Sequence record: PZ445551.1
Direction: 5' to 3' (one strand)
Length of the DNA stretch: 64,000 nt
Source: a phage
Shown here one piece after another: positions 57,136 through 62,979 of the stretch. The notes beneath the pieces are model-generated. The model was not told the DNA's origin. It saw nothing but the letters and a program-made list of their open reading frames with translations, and did not search any database. The translations under genes and the position numbers were made by a program. Position 1 is the stretch's first letter. Each line of letters begins with the position of its first letter.

Positions 57136-58884
57136 ATGAATATTTTTGCACCTTTTGCTACTGATTGGTATAAACCTGGTCACAAGCAGATGTACAACCA
57201 AAATACAAAACTCATTTTCTCTAATTTAACTCCTCGTAATGATAAAAACTTTGCACACTATGCAGATCGTGAAGCACGTGGTGTGATTGTTTTAGGTATT
57301 CGTCGAGCAGTCACCGATGCCCTTGTAACTATGTGGGACAGCTTCTTTAAAATGTCTCGTAGTGCAGCAGTAAATAAATTTTATCGTATGTCTAAAAATG
57401 CATTAGGTGCTTCTGCTCCTTCTGCTGAATGTTGGGGAGAATTGCACGATTTAGGTTATCTTCCGCTAGAAGTTCGATCTCTGCCAGAAGGTGTTTTGTG
57501 TCCTATTGGTGTTCCTGTGTTTACTGTGCATAACACTTTAGAAAAATTCTTTTGGTTAACTAACTATGTGGAAACACTATTGTCAGATGAAACTTGGAAG
57601 ACAATGACTAACGCCACAGCAGCTTTTCAGTATAAGCGTATCGCTATGGCGTATGCGATGGCAACGTGTGATAACATTGATCACGTTAATTTCCAGTGTC
57701 ATGACTTTAGTCTACGTGGCTTAAGCAATATCGAAGATGGTTATAAGAGTGGTATCGCTCATTTGGCATCTTTCACAGGAACAGATAATATTCTGGCTAT
57801 TGAAACTGTGCATGATTACTATGGTATTGATTATGATCAATTTGTTGCAGGTTCTATTCCGGCAACAGAACATTCAGTAGCAACGACTAACATTGGAGCT
57901 ATTGTTGAAGATCTGAAGAAACATTTCCCACATCTTAAAGATGATGTTGATGGGCTTCGTTATGTAGCAGAGAAAGAGTTTCTTCGCCGCTATATTGAAG
58001 AAATTGTCCCAGAAGGTTTTTGTTCATATGTAGCAGATTCTTATGATTACTGGGCTGTCTTGACTCGCATTCTGGTAGAATTGAAAGAGTCCATTATGTC
58101 ACGAAATGGTCGTCTTGTTATTCGTCCAGATTCAGGAGATCCGGTTAAAGTTGTTGCAGGATACAATGTTGAATCTTTTGATAACTATGAAGACCTTTTA
58201 AATAATGGTATTGCTACAGCCACTGAAGTAGTACATTTGGCTGATGTTAATAAGTATTACAATGTTCTTCAGGATTGCAGTGTTGCTGATTGTATCGATG
58301 AAACTTATGAGATTCCTTATTGTGAAGCAGTAGGTTCTATTCAAATCCTTTGGGAAGTGTTTGGCGGTACTATCAACCGAAAAGGCTACAAGGTTCTTGA
58401 TCAGCACATCGGTATGATTTATGGTGATTCTATTACTGTTGAACGAGAACACGAAATCTTACGCCGACTGAAGAAGAAAGGCTTTGCTGCTTCCAATATT
58501 GTATTTGGTGTTGGTAGTTATACTTATCAGTTCAATACACGAGATACTTTTGGTTTTGCTGTTAAAGCAACAGGTAGTATCATCGGTGAACACGAAATTT
58601 TGGTAAGTAAGGAGCCTAAAACTGATCCTGGTAAACGCTCTGCAAAAGGTTTTATTAAGGTTGTTAAGGATACAAATGGTAAACTTTCTCTTGTGGATAA
58701 TCTTTCTTTTAAAGATATCCAAGATGAAGACAATGAGTTAAAAGTTATCTTCAGGGATGGTACGGTTATTACACCACAAGTAGAAGGACGTGATGAAACA
58801 TTTACTGATATCCGTAACCGTGTTGATGTAGAGGTTCTTCGTACTATGGGAACCATCCAGGTTGACTACATAAAAACTTCGTGA
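57136..58884 (+). CDS. nicotinamide phosphoribosyltransferase (NAMPT/NadV) family protein; candidate nicotinamide ADPR transferase (Namat-like)
   Basis: N-terminal TDWYKPGHKQMY matches the NAMPT TDSYK.TH motif; 582 aa. Confidence 0.75.
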   Translation: MNIFAPFATDWYKPGHKQMYNQNTKLIFSNLTPRNDKNFAHYADREARGVIVLGIRRAVTDALVTMWDSFFKMSRSAAVNKFYRMSKNALGASAPSAECWGELHDLGYLPLEVRSLPEGVLCPIGVPVFTVHNTLEKFFWLTNYVETLLSDETWKTMTNATAAFQYKRIAMAYAMATCDNIDHVNFQCHDFSLRGLSNIEDGYKSGIAHLASFTGTDNILAIETVHDYYGIDYDQFVAGSIPATEHSVATTNIGAIVEDLKKHFPHLKDDVDGLRYVAEKEFLRRYIEEIVPEGFCSYVADSYDYWAVLTRILVELKESIMSRNGRLVIRPDSGDPVKVVAGYNVESFDNYEDLLNNGIATATEVVHLADVNKYYNVLQDCSVADCIDETYEIPYCEAVGSIQILWEVFGGTINRKGYKVLDQHIGMIYGDSITVEREHEILRRLKKKGFAASNIVFGVGSYTYQFNTRDTFGFAVKATGSIIGEHEILVSKEPKTDPGKRSAKGFIKVVKDTNGKLSLVDNLSFKDIQDEDNELKVIFRDGTVITPQVEGRDETFTDIRNRVDVEVLRTMGTIQVDYIKTS

Positions 58885-59286: not shown

Positions 59287-59342
59287 CAACATAGCTAGTT
59301 ATTTGCTAAGATAAGCCCAAGTTAAACAAAAAGGAGAAAACT

Positions 59343-59609
59343 ATGACAGAACGTACTTATGGTAAAGAATTGATTGAGAAGCACGTATTGATTGATAATA
59401 AAGGTGGAGCAATCTTTATTTTTGAACCTGAATCAGTTCTTACTGAAAACGAAAATGGTAGCGTTAGCCTTAAAACAGAAAGTTTGGTAATTGACTTCCT
59501 TGCTCTTCTGGATGAAATGGGGCTTCCTCACGAAGAAGAAGCAGCTATTGCTTTGATTGCAGTTCTTCTGGAGAAACGCGAAGCTGGTGAAATGACCCAG
59601 TATGCTTAA
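59343..59609 (+). CDS. hypothetical protein (88 aa)
   Basis: track ORF; RBS aaggagaaa. Confidence 0.55.
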   Translation: MTERTYGKELIEKHVLIDNKGGAIFIFEPESVLTENENGSVSLKTESLVIDFLALLDEMGLPHEEEAAIALIAVLLEKREAGEMTQYA

Positions 59610-59616
59610 TATTCAA

Positions 59617-59692
59617 GGTTCCATAGCTCACTGACGAGAGCGCACACCTCATAAGTGTCGAGGGCAGGGATTGTAACCCTGGGGAACCTCCA
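59617..59692 (+). tRNA. tRNA-Met(CAT) (or Ile2), atypical T-loop ATTGTAA
   Basis: manual cloverleaf: acceptor GGTTCCA/GGGAACC, D-arm GCTC..GAGC, anticodon loop CTCATAA, CCA encoded. Confidence 0.6.
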
Positions 59693-59723
59693 TTTAAAAG
59701 GAGGTGCTATGCATCTCCTATAT

Positions 59724-59809
59724 GCAAGTGTGGTGGAATTGGTGATACACATTGTGCTTAAAACGCAACGCTTAAATGCTTGAGGGTTCGAATCCCTCCA
59801 CTTGCACCA
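59724..59809 (+). tRNA. tRNA-Leu(TAA), type II
   Basis: acceptor GCAAGTG/CACTTGC, anticodon loop CTTAAAA, long variable arm, T-arm GAGGG-TTCGAAT-CCCTC. Confidence 0.75.
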
Positions 59810-59824
59810 ACACCTAAAAATATC

Positions 59825-59853
59825 TTGACATTTACTTAGTTTTTTGTTATAGT
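59825..59853 (+). promoter_or_regulatory. sigma70-like promoter TTGACA-17-TATAGT
   Basis: read directly; 11 nt upstream of the tRNA-like element. Confidence 0.5.
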
Positions 59854-59864
59854 TACTATGAAAA

Positions 59865-59946
59865 CGGGGTGTATCTCACCTGACTTCTAATCAGGCGTTA
59901 ACCGAGTAATTGGAGTATGCAGGTTCGAATCCTGTCACCCCGGCCA
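59865..59946 (+). tRNA. atypical tRNA-Arg(TCT)-like element lacking a D-arm
   Basis: perfect acceptor CGGGGTG/CACCCCG, T-arm GCAGG-TTCGAAT-CCTGT, anticodon hairpin CCTGA-CTTCTAA-TCAGG, but only 7 nt between acceptor and anticodon stem and a 23-nt insert before the T-arm. Confidence 0.4.
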
Positions 59947-60009
59947 AAAAGTTTTAAAAACTACTTGACAAGCAAGATAGTTTTATGTTAGATTTAAAGT
60001 ATAATAACT

Positions 60010-60099
60010 GGAAGGTAGGGCGCAGCGGTGCGCAACCAGGTTTGAACCCTGGCCCATTGTAGCGATACGGTGATGGTTCGACTCCATTATCTTCCTCCA
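60010..60099 (+). tRNA. tRNA-Ser(TGA), type II
   Basis: acceptor GGAAGGT/ATCTTCC, anticodon loop TTTGAAC, long variable arm, CCA encoded. Confidence 0.75.
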
Positions 60100-60117
60100 A
60101 ATTCTCTTAGGAGCTTT

Positions 60118-60270
60118 ATGAATTATAAAACTATTGGACAGGTTGTTACCGGAGTTAAGATTGTAAATAATAAAGTTGTTTATGAGTATTCTAATCTTCA
60201 ACAATCTGAAGATGGTAAGAATATTCGTATGGTAAAAACAGAACAAAAAGATTCCGGTTGTTTTGAATAA
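60118..60270 (+). CDS. small hypothetical protein (50 aa) embedded in tRNA array
   Basis: track ORF 60070..60270 trimmed to ATG 60118 after RBS aggag so it no longer overlaps tRNA-Ser. Confidence 0.45.
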   Translation: MNYKTIGQVVTGVKIVNNKVVYEYSNLQQSEDGKNIRMVKTEQKDSGCFE

Positions 60271-60278
60271 TTAAAAAC

Positions 60279-60364
60279 GGTAGATTGGTGAAATGGTAGC
60301 CACAACAGTTTGCTAAACTGTCGTCGGAAACGGCGTGTAGGTTCAAGTCCTACATCTACCGCCA
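60279..60364 (+). tRNA. tRNA-Ser(GCT), type II
   Basis: acceptor GGTAGAT/ATCTACC, anticodon loop TTGCTAA, long variable arm, T-arm GTAGG-TTCAAGT-CCTAC. Confidence 0.8.
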
Positions 60365-60498
60365 AGTTATCTTTAATGTAGCTTGTAATCTTACTTTAGC
60401 AGAGTAAATCTTCGGCAAGTGGCGGTAACCACTTTACCGATACCCCAATACTTCATAGCTAAGTGCCGCAAACACTGGCTATTTTAAAGATAATTTAT

Positions 60499-60574
60499 AC
60501 ATCGTTAGCTTAGTTGGTAGAGCAAGGGGCTTTTAACTCCAAGGTCGAAGGTTCGAATCCTTCACGATGTACCA
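60499..60574 (+). tRNA. tRNA-Lys(TTT)
   Basis: acceptor ACATCGT/ACGATGT, D-arm GCTT..GAGC, anticodon loop CTTTTAA, T-arm GAAGG-TTCGAAT-CCTTC. Confidence 0.85.
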
Positions 60575-60579
60575 AACAC

Positions 60580-60666
60580 GTAGGTATCGCATAGCGGCAA
60601 TTGCTGGAGACTGTAAATCTCCTGCCCTTCGGGGCTTCGTTGGTTCGAGTCCAACTACCTGCACCA
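60580..60666 (+). tRNA. tRNA-Tyr(GTA), type II
   Basis: anticodon arm GGAGA-CTGTAAA-TCTCC, variable-arm hairpin GCCCC-TTCG-GGGC, T-arm GTTGG-TTCGAGT-CCAAC. Confidence 0.8.
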
Positions 60667-60673
60667 AATTAAA

Positions 60674-60758
60674 GATGGATTGGCCTAGTGGTTGGGCGAC
60701 GGACTGTTAATCCGTGAACGAAAGTTCTAGCAAGGTTCAAATCCTTGATCCATCGCCA
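60674..60758 (+). tRNA. tRNA-Asn(GTT) with unusually long (15-nt) variable arm
   Basis: acceptor GATGGAT/ATCCATC, anticodon arm ACGGA-CTGTTAA-TCCGT, variable hairpin GAAC-GAAA-GTTC, T-arm CAAGG-TTCAAAT-CCTTG. Confidence 0.7.
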
Positions 60759-60837
60759 AATAGTGCTTGTAGAGTTAATAGAAACCTCTAGAATTTTCTA
60801 GAATTGTAGGTATCAAATCCTACCAAGCAAATATTTT

Positions 60838-60912
60838 GCTCCTATCGTATAACGGCTATTACGGTTGCCTTGTAAGCAACTTATCAGGGTTCGAGTCCTT
60901 GTGGGAGCACCA
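60838..60912 (+). tRNA. tRNA-Thr(TGT)
   Basis: acceptor GCTCCTA/TGGGAGC, anticodon arm GTTGC-CTTGTAA-GCAAC, T-arm CAGGG-TTCGAGT-CCTTG. Confidence 0.8.
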
Positions 60913-60935
60913 ATTTTAACTCTAAAGGAGTGTAT

Positions 60936-61259
60936 GTGACAGAAAAAGAGTTAGAGAAATATTTTAATATCAATGTTTTCGATGGTTTTGATGATATTGA
61001 AGATGTTGAAAGATATTATGAAGTAGAGTTAGATAAGGATAACATTGTAATTCTTTCTGCCACTTATGATTGTGCATATTATGAAGGCGAATCTCACGTT
61101 TATTTTTATGATATGAAAACATCTTTGTTTTATGAAGTACACGCATATCATTGTTCTTGTTATGGCTTAGAAGGTCAGTGGGAACCTGAAGAAATAGGTG
61201 ATTTGGACTTTACTATTGCATATCTAAACAGACGTGGTTCATCTACTATTTTAAAATAA
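60936..61259 (+). CDS. hypothetical acidic protein (about 107 aa) embedded in tRNA array
   Basis: track ORF 60930..61259; likely GTG start at 60936, 5 nt after RBS aaggag. Confidence 0.5.
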   Translation: MTEKELEKYFNINVFDGFDDIEDVERYYEVELDKDNIVILSATYDCAYYEGESHVYFYDMKTSLFYEVHAYHCSCYGLEGQWEPEEIGDLDFTIAYLNRRGSSTILK

Positions 61260-61273
61260 ATATCAAAAGCCTC

Positions 61274-61303
61274 TTGACAAAGGGGCTAATAATATGTTAG
61301 AGT
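61274..61303 (+). promoter_or_regulatory. sigma70-like promoter TTGACA-18-TAGAGT
   Basis: read directly; about 12 nt upstream of tRNA-Gly. Confidence 0.5.
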
Positions 61304-61314
61304 AATATTATTAA

Positions 61315-61389
61315 GCGGGTATAGTGTTAATGGTAGCATATGAGGTTTCCACCCTCCAGGTGCAGGTTCAAGTCCTGTTACTCGCTCCA
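61315..61389 (+). tRNA. tRNA-Gly(TCC)
   Basis: acceptor GCGGGTA/TACTCGC, anticodon loop TTTCCAC, T-arm GCAGG-TTCAAGT-CCTGT. Confidence 0.8.
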
Positions 61390-61488
61390 AGATTATTTAA
61401 ATGGAATCGTTAGAGAAAATTTCTCTTTTCGCTCATGGTTTTCTCCTTCAAACTCTAGCGGTTCTTTTTAAGTGATTTTTTAGTTTAT

Positions 61489-61563
61489 TGGAGATTAGCC
61501 TAGTGGGAAGGCAACGGCCTTTGAAGTCGTGATGACTAGGTTCGATTCCTAGATCTCCAGCCA
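61489..61563 (+). tRNA. tRNA-Gln(TTG)
   Basis: acceptor TGGAGAT/ATCTCCA, anticodon arm ACGGC-CTTTGAA-GTCGT, T-arm CTAGG-TTCGATT-CCTAG. Confidence 0.8.
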
Positions 61564-61570
61564 ATATTTA

Positions 61571-61646
61571 CAGTGCGTAGCGCAGTTGGTAGCGTGGGAG
61601 CCTTGGACGCTTCAGGTCGCAGGTTCGAGTCCTGCCGCACTGACCA
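61571..61646 (+). tRNA. tRNA-Pro(TGG)
   Basis: acceptor CAGTGCG/CGCACTG, D-arm GCGC-AGTTGGTA-GCGT, anticodon loop CTTGGAC, T-arm GCAGG-TTCGAGT-CCTGC. Confidence 0.85.
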
Positions 61647-61651
61647 AATTT

Positions 61652-61726
61652 GCAGAGATAGCTGAGACGGATTAGTGCTACCCTGAAAAGGTAGAAAGGA
61701 TGGATCGTTACCATCTCTCTGCACCA
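61652..61726 (+). tRNA. tRNA-Phe(GAA), atypical T-loop ATCGTTA
   Basis: acceptor GCAGAGA/TCTCTGC, anticodon arm CTACC-CTGAAAA-GGTAG, T-stem GATGG/CCATC. Confidence 0.75.
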
Positions 61727-61803
61727 AATAACACCATCCAAGGAGTAGACTTGGTTAACTGTCAATAGCACATTGAGGCTTCTTACAGTGGTGTACTTAT
61801 TAT

Positions 61804-61888
61804 GGCTAAGTGGTGGAATGGTATACACGATACGCTTAGAACGTATTGCCCCAAGGGATTGTGAGTTCGAGTCTCACCTTAGCTACCA
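61804..61888 (+). tRNA. tRNA-Leu(TAG), type II
   Basis: acceptor GGCTAAG/CTTAGCT, anticodon arm ATACG-CTTAGAA-CGTAT, long variable arm, T-arm GTGAG-TTCGAGT-CTCAC. Confidence 0.8.
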
Positions 61889-61903
61889 AATTATTACAGA
61901 TTG

Positions 61904-61982
61904 TGCGGGATAGAGGAGTCTGGTCGTCCTCGCCAGTTTCATATGCTGGAGATCATCGGTTCGAATCCGATTCCCGCCTCCA
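61904..61982 (+). tRNA. tRNA-Met(CAT) (second CAT tRNA; elongator Met, initiator or Ile2)
   Basis: anticodon arm CCAGT-TTCATAT-GCTGG, T-arm ATCGG-TTCGAAT-CCGAT, acceptor with mismatched 1-72 pair. Confidence 0.7.
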
Positions 61983-62040
61983 ATAAATACCTCCCTTCTG
62001 GTGTAATGATTAAGTTACATTGACACTTCAAGGAACTCAT

Positions 62041-62123
62041 AGCCGGGTAGATTTAAAAGAGTATGGTACTCAATATGGCTCCAAACCATAGATCAAGGGG
62101 TTCGATTCCTCACCTTGCTGCCA
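62041..62123 (+). tRNA. atypical tRNA-Trp(CCA)-like element (possible pseudo-tRNA)
   Basis: anticodon arm TATGG-CTCCAAA-CCATA and T-loop TTCGATT present, but 11-nt insert between acceptor 5' strand and D-arm and imperfect acceptor/T stems. Confidence 0.3.
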
Positions 62124-62128
62124 ATTAT

Positions 62129-62204
62129 TGTGGTATCGTACAGATGGTTAGTACACTCGACCGATAATCGAGAAACAACGGTTCGACTCCGTTTACCACG
62201 ACCA
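62129..62204 (+). tRNA. tRNA-Ile(GAT)
   Basis: acceptor TGTGGTA/TACCACG, D-arm GTAC-AGATGGTTA-GTAC, anticodon arm CTCGA-CCGATAA-TCGAG, T-arm AACGG-TTCGACT-CCGTT. Confidence 0.8.
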
Positions 62205-62312
62205 AACTCCGTGCCAGCGGTGTCTTCGAAGAACAAGCCTAGTTCCTTCTGAGATGGAGGGGTGCGACTCCTTAACGCACATACTACTACTAAATACTTA
62301 TCAGGAGATATT

Positions 62313-62582
62313 ATGTATACTTTAAAAGTAATTCGCAAGTTTCCTCAAGAAGAGGAAGTAAGAATTTATAACACTGTCCCATTCGTAGTAAATGAAGAAG
62401 AATTCTTTTATTGCTTAGAAGATGAAGTGATTATTCAATATCATTGGGAAGGTTATGACAGACCAGATGGTGTTGTAGCTTCTGTGATTGCTGGTGAAAG
62501 AGTGTTATTCATTCACAAAACTGAATCAGCATATTTAATGAATGATAAAGGACAAACTGTTAAAGTAATTAACAGACCATAA
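62313..62582 (+). CDS. hypothetical protein (89 aa)
   Basis: track ORF 62262..62582 trimmed to ATG 62313 after RBS caggag. Confidence 0.5.
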   Translation: MYTLKVIRKFPQEEEVRIYNTVPFVVNEEEFFYCLEDEVIIQYHWEGYDRPDGVVASVIAGERVLFIHKTESAYLMNDKGQTVKVINRP

Positions 62583-62595
62583 AGAATTTTATAAA

Positions 62596-62619
62596 AGCCT
62601 CCTTTTTGGAGGTTTTTTA
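62596..62619 (+). terminator. rho-independent terminator
   Basis: agcctcc-ttttt-ggaggtt followed by TTTTTT. Confidence 0.65.
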
Positions 62620-62688
62620 TTATCTATAAAATAAAGATCTTTACAAAACGTATAAAATATGTTATCCTTAAGTAAGGAGGTGCATATT

Positions 62689-62979
62689 ATGCCTAAATTG
62701 AAAAGAGGTCGAGGTAGACCTACAGCCGAAATGCAACAGATTTATGCTATGGATGCTGCACAGGCGCAAGTAAAAGAAATTTTTGCTGGTCGTTATTTAG
62801 ATGCTATGCGTTACATTGCAGATCTTGTTGTAGATGAAAAGGCTTCTGCTAATATTAAGTTGACTGCTTCTAAGATCATCAAAGAACAAGTAGAAGAATG
62901 GCTGGAAGAACATTATGAATCTATGGAAGAAGAAGATATTCTTCCAGAAAATTCTCCCCCTCAAAAAATCGTTATCTAA
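62689..62979 (+). CDS. small protein with N-terminal AT-hook (KRGRGRP) and acidic C-terminus
   Basis: track ORF 62659..62979 trimmed to ATG 62689 after RBS aaggagg. Confidence 0.5.
   Translation: MPKLKRGRGRPTAEMQQIYAMDAAQAQVKEIFAGRYLDAMRYIADLVVDEKASANIKLTASKIIKEQVEEWLEEHYESMEEEDILPENSPPQKIVI

Follow-up and report, generated by a model that had tools for sequence, protein, structure and literature searches.

Structured RNA genes in the tRNA operon of a phi92-like Escherichia coli phage, one of them complementary to a plasmid abortive-infection gene

S1 and a plasmid abortive-infection gene

The subject of this analysis is an array of transfer RNA (tRNA) genes within a 64,000-nucleotide (nt) stretch of phage DNA (sequence record PZ445551.1; hereafter referred to as the window). 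This region forms the tRNA operon of a virulent E. coli phage of the phi92-like type (Justusliebigvirus): positions 59400-62500 of the window are 100% identical to Escherichia phage VivaForever (PP925843.1) and ~98% identical to phi92 and other members of Justusliebigvirus. The records of these relatives already annotate the region as a run of tRNAs with small hypothetical open reading frames (ORFs). The tRNA array itself is already known and present in GenBank, and the novelty resides in the content of its spacers, since the longer of these "spacers" are genes for structured RNAs encoded on the tRNA strand. One of them, which we refer to as S1, is complementary to the end of an abortive-infection (abi) gene carried by conjugative plasmids, while two further genes, S0 and S5, are tRNA-like but have non-canonical D regions.

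S1 occupies 135 nt of the plus strand (60363-60497), with its 3' end at the 5' end of the tRNA-Lys gene. Its predicted fold consists of a 17-base-pair (bp) closing helix and three hairpins, which together create a four-way junction (fold z-score, z = -3.82). The S1 covariance model (R1) scored 117.7 bits on the plus strand vs. 28.7 bits on the minus strand, and across the homologues it yielded 95-135 bits on the tRNA strand compared to 25-40 bits on the opposite strand. In an alignment of 17 sequences, 99.4% of the cells were paired and 7 pairs had changed on both sides, while slid controls yielded none. S1 was found in 184 phage records distributed among the Stephanstirmvirinae, the Vequintavirinae, and some Tequintaviruses, and it is annotated as a feature in 0/184 of these. 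The original prediction, which was made from the sequence without database searches, had suggested that this spacer (60365-60498) might be a degenerate tRNA or a processing signal, whereas it is instead a conserved four-way-junction RNA.

Across phages, S1 is almost always located directly 5' of tRNA-Tyr, and in the Tequintaviruses that have it (HildyBeyeler, phA11, and HMD-P5), it lies directly behind the promoter of the tRNA-Tyr transcript. Both the covariance model and BLAST indicate that T5 and BF23 are without S1 and carry another leader in the same slot, behind the same promoter (P14a). As S1 replaces this leader with identical flanks in other Tequintaviruses, the slot can be regarded as a cassette-exchange site. 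The T5/BF23 leader itself, which extends from P14a to tRNA-Tyr on the minus strand (L022:7429-7534 in T5 and L096:8214-8321 in BF23), has a fold z-score of -5.88 and is not annotated as a stable RNA.

The core of S1 (60390-60447, plus strand), which comprises hairpins 1 and 2 plus ACCGAUACCCCA, has 58/58 identity to plasmid sequence. Its reverse complement corresponds without mismatch to the final 18 codons and the stop codon of the ColIb-P9 gene for a 114-amino-acid (aa) "abortive infection protein," with the antisense match spanning the C-terminal codons WGIGKVVTATCRRFTLLK and the stop of the abi ORF. On ColIb-P9 (NC_002122.1), a 103-nt plasmid query containing the core matched at 100%, and the abi ORF is intact. 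Hairpins 1 and 2, with loops of 7 nt and 6 nt, respectively, are wholly contained within the core. Hairpin 2 covaries, and the loop of hairpin 1 starts with UUAG, which we take to be a YUNR-type motif. The hairpin TTACT-TTAGCAG-AGTAA had previously been described as anticodon-arm-like; it is indeed present in the sequence, but it is complementary to the sequence around the stop codon of the plasmid abi gene.

When metagenomes were scanned with the S1 motif, contigs of 51% G+C that share the core alone were recovered, and these are enterobacterial plasmids. The core element is present on 457 PLSDB plasmids, 417 of which are conjugative and which include ColIb-P9, as well as in 201 of 5426 complete E. 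coli genomes, where its location is nearly always a plasmid. The same 5426 genomes contained no match to the other spacers of the window, the T5 leader preceding tRNA-Tyr, seven T5 stable RNAs (RNAX not included), or T4 rnaC and rnaD. Thus, the plasmid link is specific to S1.

The four plasmid abi alleles examined also have polymorphisms in common with phage S1 alleles. The VivaForever core corresponds to that of plasmid L084 at 58/58 positions, phi92 to L093 at 55/58, the Phapecoctavirus members dw-ec, ABPW7, and Schickermooser together with phage EF1-1 to L094 at 53-55/58, and A7_1 to L095 at 47/54. In one phage variant (L079), the identity extends over 27 codons (80/82, 98%). Furthermore, loci L012 and L051 contain two tandem S1 modules of different allele type, with the inserted module being identical to the L095 allele at 44/49 positions vs. 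31/49 for the VivaForever core.

The 114-aa protein is named "abortive infection protein" by both NCBI and UniProt and appears hydrophobic from a reading of its translation. Its gene adjoins the colicin Ib and immunity genes (cib/imm) as well as a DUF4238 gene. In the ColIb-type plasmids L084 (1995-5240) and L097 (2336-5581), the order is conserved, with DUF4238 on the plus strand followed by abi, an 84-aa ORF, and a 308-aa ORF on the minus strand. IS26 interrupts the DUF4238 gene in L094, and for ColIb-P9 the PLSDB gene table omits the abi ORF even though it is intact. Neither the 84-aa nor the 308-aa ORF had a match in Pfam, NCBIfam, or PADLOC, and a PADLOC and NCBIfam search of the plasmid genes returned nothing meaningful, as the lone PADLOC match (JetA, E 0.0037) is to another neighboring ORF. 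The DUF4238 gene is a validated anti-T7 defense (PMC9122126). ColIb aborts infection by T5 and BF23 with a loss of membrane potential, the published trigger being the pre-early protein A2, and in 2023 the abi/ibf products were described as unidentified (PMC10644984).

Several other identities for S1 were considered and rejected. Neither BLAST nor a filter-off covariance model indicated homology to T4 rnaC/rnaD or to the T5 RNAs, and there was no model match or matching architecture for a Y-RNA-like, T-box-like, retron, or ribozyme element. That the hairpin-1 loop UUAGCAG might kiss the anticodon loop of tRNA-Ser(GCU) or mimic a codon was also considered, but this was dropped because the loop also occurs as UUAAUAG and the abi match provides a better explanation. 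A short minus-strand ORF across S1 in VivaForever (MKYWGIGK...) has no Shine-Dalgarno sequence, and from a reading of the sequence its frame is lost in ESCO5. Lastly, a scan of IMG/VR with the hairpin-1 motif of S1 gave 6 matches, 3 of which are chance matches within coding sequence.

The tRNA-like genes S0 and S5

Two tRNA-like genes were overlooked in the original prediction, the Arg(UCU)-like S0 (59865-59946) and the Trp(CCA)-like S5 (62041-62123), both on the plus strand, as were the spacers 61983-62128, which contains S5, and 62205-62312. S0 begins with a 7-bp acceptor stem and U8A9, followed by a 3-bp helix (CUC/GAG) placed around the anticodon arm with its loop CUUCUAA, and continues with a D-loop-like stretch (UAAUUGGAGUAU), the T arm, G73, and CCA. 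Only 4-5 nt are found between positions 9 and 26, with no D hairpin containing G18 G19, and the GG stretch is located 3' of the anticodon arm. In the alignment to the Rfam tRNA model (RF00005, gathering score 29 bits), 4 nt replace 15 D-arm positions and the variable region has a 20-nt insert; S0 passes the gathering score at 38.6 bits with its D arm deleted in this alignment. Since both the D-loop-like segment and the helix are kept, the D arm of S0 is rearranged rather than lost. In GenBank, the gene is labeled "tRNA-OTHER."

Full-length homologues of S0 with 82-86% identity are found in Felixounavirus, the jumbo Asteriusvirus, Sugarlandvirus, Mydovirus, a Vibrio phage, and Streptomyces phages, and almost none are annotated as tRNAs. 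At a coverage of at least 80%, S0 is present in 234 phage records, and further copies occur in IMG/VR contigs, where a motif scan added 50 loci. Among 35 distinct phage sequences, 95% of the aligned cells were paired and 17/21 pairs had changed on both sides; 0/500 shuffles did as well, and slid partners were paired in just 32-45% of cells. The 3-bp helix, which links CUC after U8A9 to GAG beyond the anticodon arm, likewise covaries (UA 28, GC 4, and AU 3 at one pair; CG 33 and UA 2 at another) and has the variants CGC/GCG and CAU/AUG, while the anticodon loop CUUCUAA and the D-loop-like stretch are both invariant. S0 is usually only a few nt from its neighboring tRNAs. A canonical Arg-tct gene co-occurs in 2/57 S0 loci, other Arg isoacceptors are often present, and the phages ESCO5, Tr1, PsgM04F, and BP9 have a canonical Arg-tct gene and no S0. 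Judging from these sequence features, S0 most likely serves these phages as their functional tRNA-Arg(UCU). In six IMG/VR loci (L024, L026, L032, L037, L045, and L047), the acceptor helix is extended into the flanks and CCA is lacking. Such copies could reflect leader-trailer pairing of CCA-less precursors, or they may not be tRNAs.

S5 scores 22.9 bits with the Rfam tRNA model, which is below the gathering score of 29, and its structure is supported by covariation. The 5' half consists of an acceptor stem with a conserved C-U at 4-69, U8A9, and a 9-nt linker. The D region has a 6-bp D stem with a 3-nt UGG loop and so does not form the canonical G18 G19 D hairpin. The 3' half contains the anticodon loop CUCCAAA, a T arm, G73, and CCA, and 5 nt separate the end of the gene from tRNA-Ile. 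Citrobacter phage Tr1, Cronobacter phage PBES02, Proteus phage Mydo, Klebsiella phage BIS47, and two metagenomic phages carry homologues, and in an alignment of 6 sequences from at least three genera, 16/23 pairs were compensatory. Of the 66 records that hold S5, 40 were listed, and none of these has a tRNA annotation beneath the match. In the array regions retrieved from relatives, ARAGORN did not detect a canonical tRNA-Trp.

Both S0 and S5 therefore covary strongly while keeping the acceptor, anticodon, and T arms as well as the discriminator and CCA, and they are missed or mislabeled by standard finders because their D regions are rearranged. The slots that they fill are occupied in the arrays of relatives by a canonical tRNA-Arg(UCU) or, for S5, by no tRNA-Trp at all. 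On the strength of these features, S0 and S5 most likely decode AGA and UGG, respectively. As the widespread Arg-like and Trp-like families carry either no tRNA label or "tRNA-OTHER" in the records that were examined, the tRNA repertoires of many phages are under-counted.

The remaining genes and spacers of the array

ARAGORN returned 15 tRNAs with 7-nt anticodon loops from the array, leaving S0 and S5 undetected. This set is identical in coordinates and anticodons to the one that had been folded by hand, and 13/15 also pass the Rfam tRNA model at its gathering score. All are on the plus strand. Those identified by both programs are tRNA-Leu(TAA) (59724-59809), tRNA-Ser(GCT) (60279-60364), tRNA-Lys(TTT) (60499-60574), tRNA-Tyr(GTA) (60580-60666), tRNA-Asn(GTT) (60674-60758), tRNA-Thr(TGT) (60838-60912), tRNA-Gly(TCC) (61315-61389), tRNA-Gln(TTG) (61489-61563), tRNA-Pro(TGG) (61571-61646), tRNA-Phe(GAA) (61652-61726), tRNA-Leu(TAG) (61804-61888), an initiator-like tRNA with anticodon CAT (61904-61982), and tRNA-Ile(GAT) (62129-62204). 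Encoded CCA is found in 15/15 and not just in nearly all, as had been stated, and the gaps between adjacent genes are typically 5-7 nt.

The initiator-like tRNA has a U1-C72 mismatch and a long D stem and is 66% identical to the T5 tRNA-fMet. A second CAT anticodon, also predicted originally, belongs to the tRNA at 59617-59692 (elongator Met or Ile2 type; "hypothetical tRNA" in phi92), which was found by ARAGORN and had no Rfam tRNA match even at E<=10. Its elbow is degenerate, with a D loop (ACTGACGA) that has no GG and the T loop ATTGTAA. The nearest sequences are the Met tRNA of Citrobacter phage Tr1 (62%) and then the T5 Ile2 tRNA (60%), and relative to the Tr1 homologue the GG and T-Psi-C elbow motifs have been lost. 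Thus, the description of all 15 as canonical was slightly generous. The other gene below the Rfam gathering score is tRNA-Ser(TGA) (60010-60099), for which the sole listed Rfam match is tRNA-Sec at 35.3 bits (gathering score 47). Both tRNA-Ser(TGA) and tRNA-Phe are flagged as pseudogenes in the phi92 RefSeq record, and both were found here by ARAGORN. The tRNA-Phe gene scores 49 bits with Rfam and is labeled "tRNA-Leu-GAA" in VEcB.

Three sigma-70-type promoters precede blocks of tRNA genes, all on the plus strand and each with TG ahead of its -10 element: TTGACA-17-TATAGT at 59825-59853 (extended -10, 11/12 matches in the motif scan), which is 11 nt upstream of S0, TTGACA-18-TAGATT at 59965-59994, which is kept in ESCO5 and PsgM04F, and TTGACA-18-TAGAGT at 61274-61303. 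These are the same three TTGACA promoters that had been proposed, and they have the top three sigma-70 scores in 59300-62700, where the scan found 19 sites compared to 8.6 +/- 3.2 in shuffles. The two embedded small protein genes were likewise correctly called. The 50-aa ORF (60118-60270, plus strand) belongs to PHROG 22441 (E 3.5e-39) and the 107-aa ORF (60936-61259, plus strand) to PHROG 8792 (E 6.7e-44), both being families without an assigned function. Overall, ARAGORN, the existing annotation, the promoter scan, and PHROG all agree with the earlier description of a compact phage tRNA array that has its own promoters and embedded small genes.

Besides S1, the non-tRNA elements that lie on the tRNA strand and are bounded by tRNA genes or a promoter are S2, S3, S4, and S6. 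A search of the spacers with Rfam found no non-tRNA family at its gathering score, and at E<=10 there were only plastid, miRNA, and riboswitch matches far below threshold. The earlier suggestion that the spacers are degenerate tRNAs or processing signals fits only some of them. S2 (60763-60830, plus strand), in the spacer 60760-60837, does have a tRNA-like cloverleaf and directly follows tRNA-Asn, and it belongs to the same family as the RNA3 of T5 and BF23. The molecule comprises an acceptor stem, the motif GTAGAGTTAA-GTAAACC, an arm that has no anticodon loop, and a T arm whose loop is 8 nt long. This motif and the T-arm loop (A/T)ATCGAAT are common to S2 and T5/BF23 RNA3, the VivaForever allele having ATAGAAACC and ATCAAAT. 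Unlike T5 RNA3, S2 has no encoded CCA, and its alleles end in CAAGCA-AATA or CGAGTCC-CAG. Because its stems covary (9/22 pairs compensatory in an alignment that includes T5 RNA3), S2 is being maintained rather than decaying.

S3 (61390-61478, plus strand), in the spacer 61390-61488, is a G-U-rich hairpin of 24-26 bp with a conserved pyrimidine-rich loop (CUCAUGGUUUUCUCCUU). Its fold is strand-specific due to the G-U pairs, with z = -4.17 on the plus strand vs. -0.81 on the minus strand, and among 5 sequences there are 4 compensatory pairs and an invariant pyrimidine-rich apical stretch. From this predicted structure, S3 is plausibly an RNase III-type processing site, which would agree with the earlier suggestion for this spacer, or it is a candidate stable RNA. 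At its apex (61432-61448) is the invariant 17-mer CTCATGGTTTTCTCCTT, which on the minus strand reads AAGGAGAAAACCATGAG, i.e., a strong Shine-Dalgarno sequence, a spacer, and ATG. The minus-strand ORF that begins there has 8-14 codons and encodes MSEKRNFL here, MSKRESFLATLY in ESCO5, and MSEKGKSFLTILFK in Tr1, each followed by a stop. On the plus strand, an anti-Shine-Dalgarno-like CUCCUU lies in a loop.

S4 (61727-61803, plus strand) is a spacer about the size of a tRNA. It has a closing helix and contains the hairpin CCAAG-GAGTAGA-CTTGG, which is present as had been reported. S4 is not significantly structured (z = -1.74) and is limited to close relatives. Tr1 has a spacer of the same size at this position that is unrelated, as a search for homology between the two found none. 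S6 (62210-62281, plus strand) is a 72-nt element after the last tRNA. Its conservation is on par with that of the tRNAs, at 85-92% in Tr1, ESCO5, and PsgM04F and 80% in a single metagenomic locus. No convincing fold (z = +0.31) and no Rfam match were found for S6, the sequence of which includes the palindrome TCTTCGAAGA as well as GGAGGGGTGCGACTCC, which resembles a T arm.

Mobile genes use the array as a landing zone, and in the relatives both tRNAs and HNH genes are freely gained and lost. Several unrelated phages have an HNH endonuclease gene immediately after the Arg-like gene (L016:2547-2945, L018:2591-3100, L047, and L054), and VEcB has one between tRNA-Gln and tRNA-Pro (L092:2334-2693). 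In phi92, S3 is followed by a 330-bp insertion that carries a 43-aa ORF with the annotation "rIII" (L002:3590-3921). The gene just upstream of the array (57136-58884) encodes a nicotinamide phosphoribosyltransferase, as it does in PBES02 and phi92, while spanin and terminase genes are downstream, and the placement of the array is syntenic across the Stephanstirmvirinae and Vequintavirinae.

Proposed antisense regulation of abi and the alternatives

The observed sequence relationships, the covariation-backed structures, the orientation of S1 relative to abi, and the alleles shared by plasmids and phages are, taken together, probably best explained by a phi92-like tRNA operon in which the spacers are structured-RNA genes, the two odd tRNAs decode, and S1 serves as an antisense RNA against Abi. 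RNase P acting at the 5' ends of the tRNAs together with 3' trimming would free the spacer RNAs as discrete molecules, as has been described for the T4/T5 clusters. S1 would then pair with abi mRNA, most likely via loop-loop contacts of hairpins 1 and 2, and this pairing would silence or destabilize the mRNA, leading to less Abi and allowing the phage to escape ColIb-type abortive infection. A more elaborate version, in which S1 would disarm the ColIb Abi as part of an allele-for-allele arms race fought over a 58-82-nt module, with stacked specificities in some phages, and in which S0 and S5 would be functional tRNAs with rearranged D arms, is offered tentatively, as a serious possibility rather than a probability.

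Several points weigh against these proposals. The absence of S1 from ColIb-sensitive phages is a correlation that involves just two phages, T5 and BF23. The 114-aa gene is only a putative functional abi of ColIb, based upon its database names, its cib/imm neighborhood, and the hydrophobicity of its product. Since an antisense RNA cannot remove Abi that already exists, the model further requires that Abi be newly made or short-lived. On the plasmid plus strand, the candidate promoter for a sense S1-like RNA has a perfect -35 and a poor -10 element and was not called by the scan; as this candidate is weak, we do not claim a type I toxin-antitoxin pair. For the tRNA-like genes, 6/35 Arg-like sequences have, by inspection, acceptor helices of 14-18 bp and no CCA, and these copies may not all be chargeable tRNAs.

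One alternative is that S1 and abi do not interact and that recombination left their identity behind as a scar, with plasmids having captured phage DNA or phages plasmid DNA, in which case S1 could be a structured 5' leader that aids the processing of tRNA-Tyr or tRNA-Lys. The nearly invariable position of S1 directly 5' of tRNA-Tyr would fit such a role, as would the unrelated structured leader in the T5/BF23 slot, since the slot may simply need structure. Recombination between defense islands and phages does occur, and codon changes in the antisense frame do not discriminate, being synonymous in 154/461 cases (33%) vs. 134/423 (32%) in another frame. However, there are at least four distinct allele pairs across plasmids and different phage families, which implies repeated exchange or tracking, some phages have stacked two modules of different allele type, the phage transcript is antisense to abi in all cases examined, and the shared stretch is precisely the two hairpins with exposed loops. 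Because alleles match repeatedly and two allele types are stacked, we disfavor both a scar and a leader and consider this alternative unlikely.

It is similarly doubtful that S0 and S5 are non-decoding decoys or mimics that soak up tRNA-targeting defense nucleases or tRNA-modifying enzymes. Phage tRNAs can counter anticodon nucleases, a rearranged D region would alter recognition by proteins, and the Arg-like copies with extended acceptor helices and no CCA would suit this role. However, the features for charging have been kept (a 7-bp acceptor, G73 or A73, and CCA in the enterobacterial phages), as have those for decoding (a canonical 7-nt anticodon loop and the T loop TTCGA(A/G)T). The invariant GGA is also retained in the D-loop-like stretch, A20 being an identity element for arginyl-tRNA synthetase (ArgRS), and no other gene occupies the UCU and CCA slots of the arrays. 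Decoding thus remains the favored role for S0 and S5.

A broader possibility is that the spacers are decayed tRNA pseudogenes or passive processing spacers that have no function once excised. This would account for S4, which is confined to close relatives and has a fold no better than ~5% of shuffles, and for S6, which has no convincing fold. The tRNA at 59617, having lost its elbow motifs relative to the Tr1 homologue, and the frequent gain and loss of tRNA and HNH genes in the arrays of relatives are also consistent with decay. Overall, such an origin is quite unlikely, as the stems of S0, S5, S1, and S2 have compensatory changes across genera and families, which is not a product of decay, S0 and S5 keep their invariant anticodon loops together with discriminators and CCA, and S1 has been kept in three phage families and 184 records. 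Lastly, it is very unlikely that S1 is instead a trigger sensed by the plasmid, with pairing activating or stabilizing toxin expression and plasmid alleles tracking those of the phages, because even though the complementarity and allele matching would look the same and Abi systems need a phage-specific trigger, the repeated matching and stacking of two allele types disfavor it, selection would be expected to cause loss or divergence of S1 when instead a second allele type has been added and three families retain S1, and the published trigger for T5/BF23 is the pre-early protein A2 (PMC10644984) and both phages are without S1.

For the abortion of T5 and BF23 by ColIb, a phenomenon known for about half a century, the match of S1 to abi singles out one candidate gene, of 114 aa, along with a candidate natural antagonist. 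It also provides the first concrete candidate function for a non-tRNA RNA of phage tRNA clusters. If the antisense proposal is correct, at least some of the stable RNAs of these clusters, which have been known since the 1970s, would be RNA anti-defense cargo riding upon the promoters and processing of tRNAs. There are precedents for RNA in such conflicts. The pseudo-ToxI of phage PhiTE antagonizes ToxIN, and the hok/sok type I toxin-antitoxin locus excludes T4. S1 resembles these in being a phage RNA that matches part of a plasmid abortive-infection module, with corresponding alleles, and that would neutralize a small membrane-active toxin. Unlike pseudo-ToxI, S1 runs antisense to the toxin gene itself, at the 3' end of its coding sequence, and is not a copy of a repeat antitoxin, and it differs from both systems in being embedded within a tRNA operon and in having a target of 114 aa, which is longer than typical type I toxins.

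For S0, the closest comparison is with the mitochondrial tRNAs that lack a D arm, as these similarly have a short connector and no D hairpin between the acceptor and anticodon stems; the review that covers such non-canonical tRNAs mentions no phage or virus case (PMC7609411). In contrast to the mitochondrial tRNAs, S0 keeps UAAUUGGAGUAU and one strand of the D stem, which have been moved 3' of the anticodon arm, and it belongs to phages of bacteria. According to a 2024 paper, all known bacterial tRNAs are canonical (PMC11551756). If S0 and S5 are charged, natural tRNAs with rearranged D arms would operate on bacterial ribosomes, and they would be the first functional tRNAs of this kind described in the bacterial world.

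As a whole, the locus appears to work like the tRNA clusters of T4 and T5, with tRNAs and stable RNAs, its own promoters, small ORFs, and homing-endonuclease traffic. What is new compared to those clusters is the two tRNA families with rearranged D regions and the complementarity between S1 and abi. In T4, the small stable RNAs rnaC and rnaD (species 1 and 2 RNAs) are located alongside the tRNAs and have gone ~50 years without an assigned function. T4 belongs to another phage family, and neither RNA has sequence or model similarity to S1 (9.6 bits), while rnaC has a tRNA-like fold with a canonical T arm. In T5 and BF23 (NC_005859 and NC_042564), the non-tRNA genes for RNAI, RNAIII, RNAIV, RNA1, RNA2, RNA2H, RNA3, and RNAX are interleaved with tRNAs in the same manner as here, and several of these RNAs have been described as tRNA-like. 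Like the window, the T5/BF23 tRNA region comes from a large virulent coliphage and has small ORFs, sigma-70 promoters, and HNH genes. The T5 and T4 RNAs (RNAX not included) differ in having no counterpart in E. coli genomes or plasmids, whereas S1 has one, and apart from S2 none of the spacers examined here has similarity to a T5 RNA, either in sequence or by the S1 model. S1 does share with the T5 leader its slot ahead of tRNA-Tyr behind P14a, and S2 is a true homologue of T5 RNA3, with the motif, the cloverleaf, and the position after tRNA-Asn all in common.

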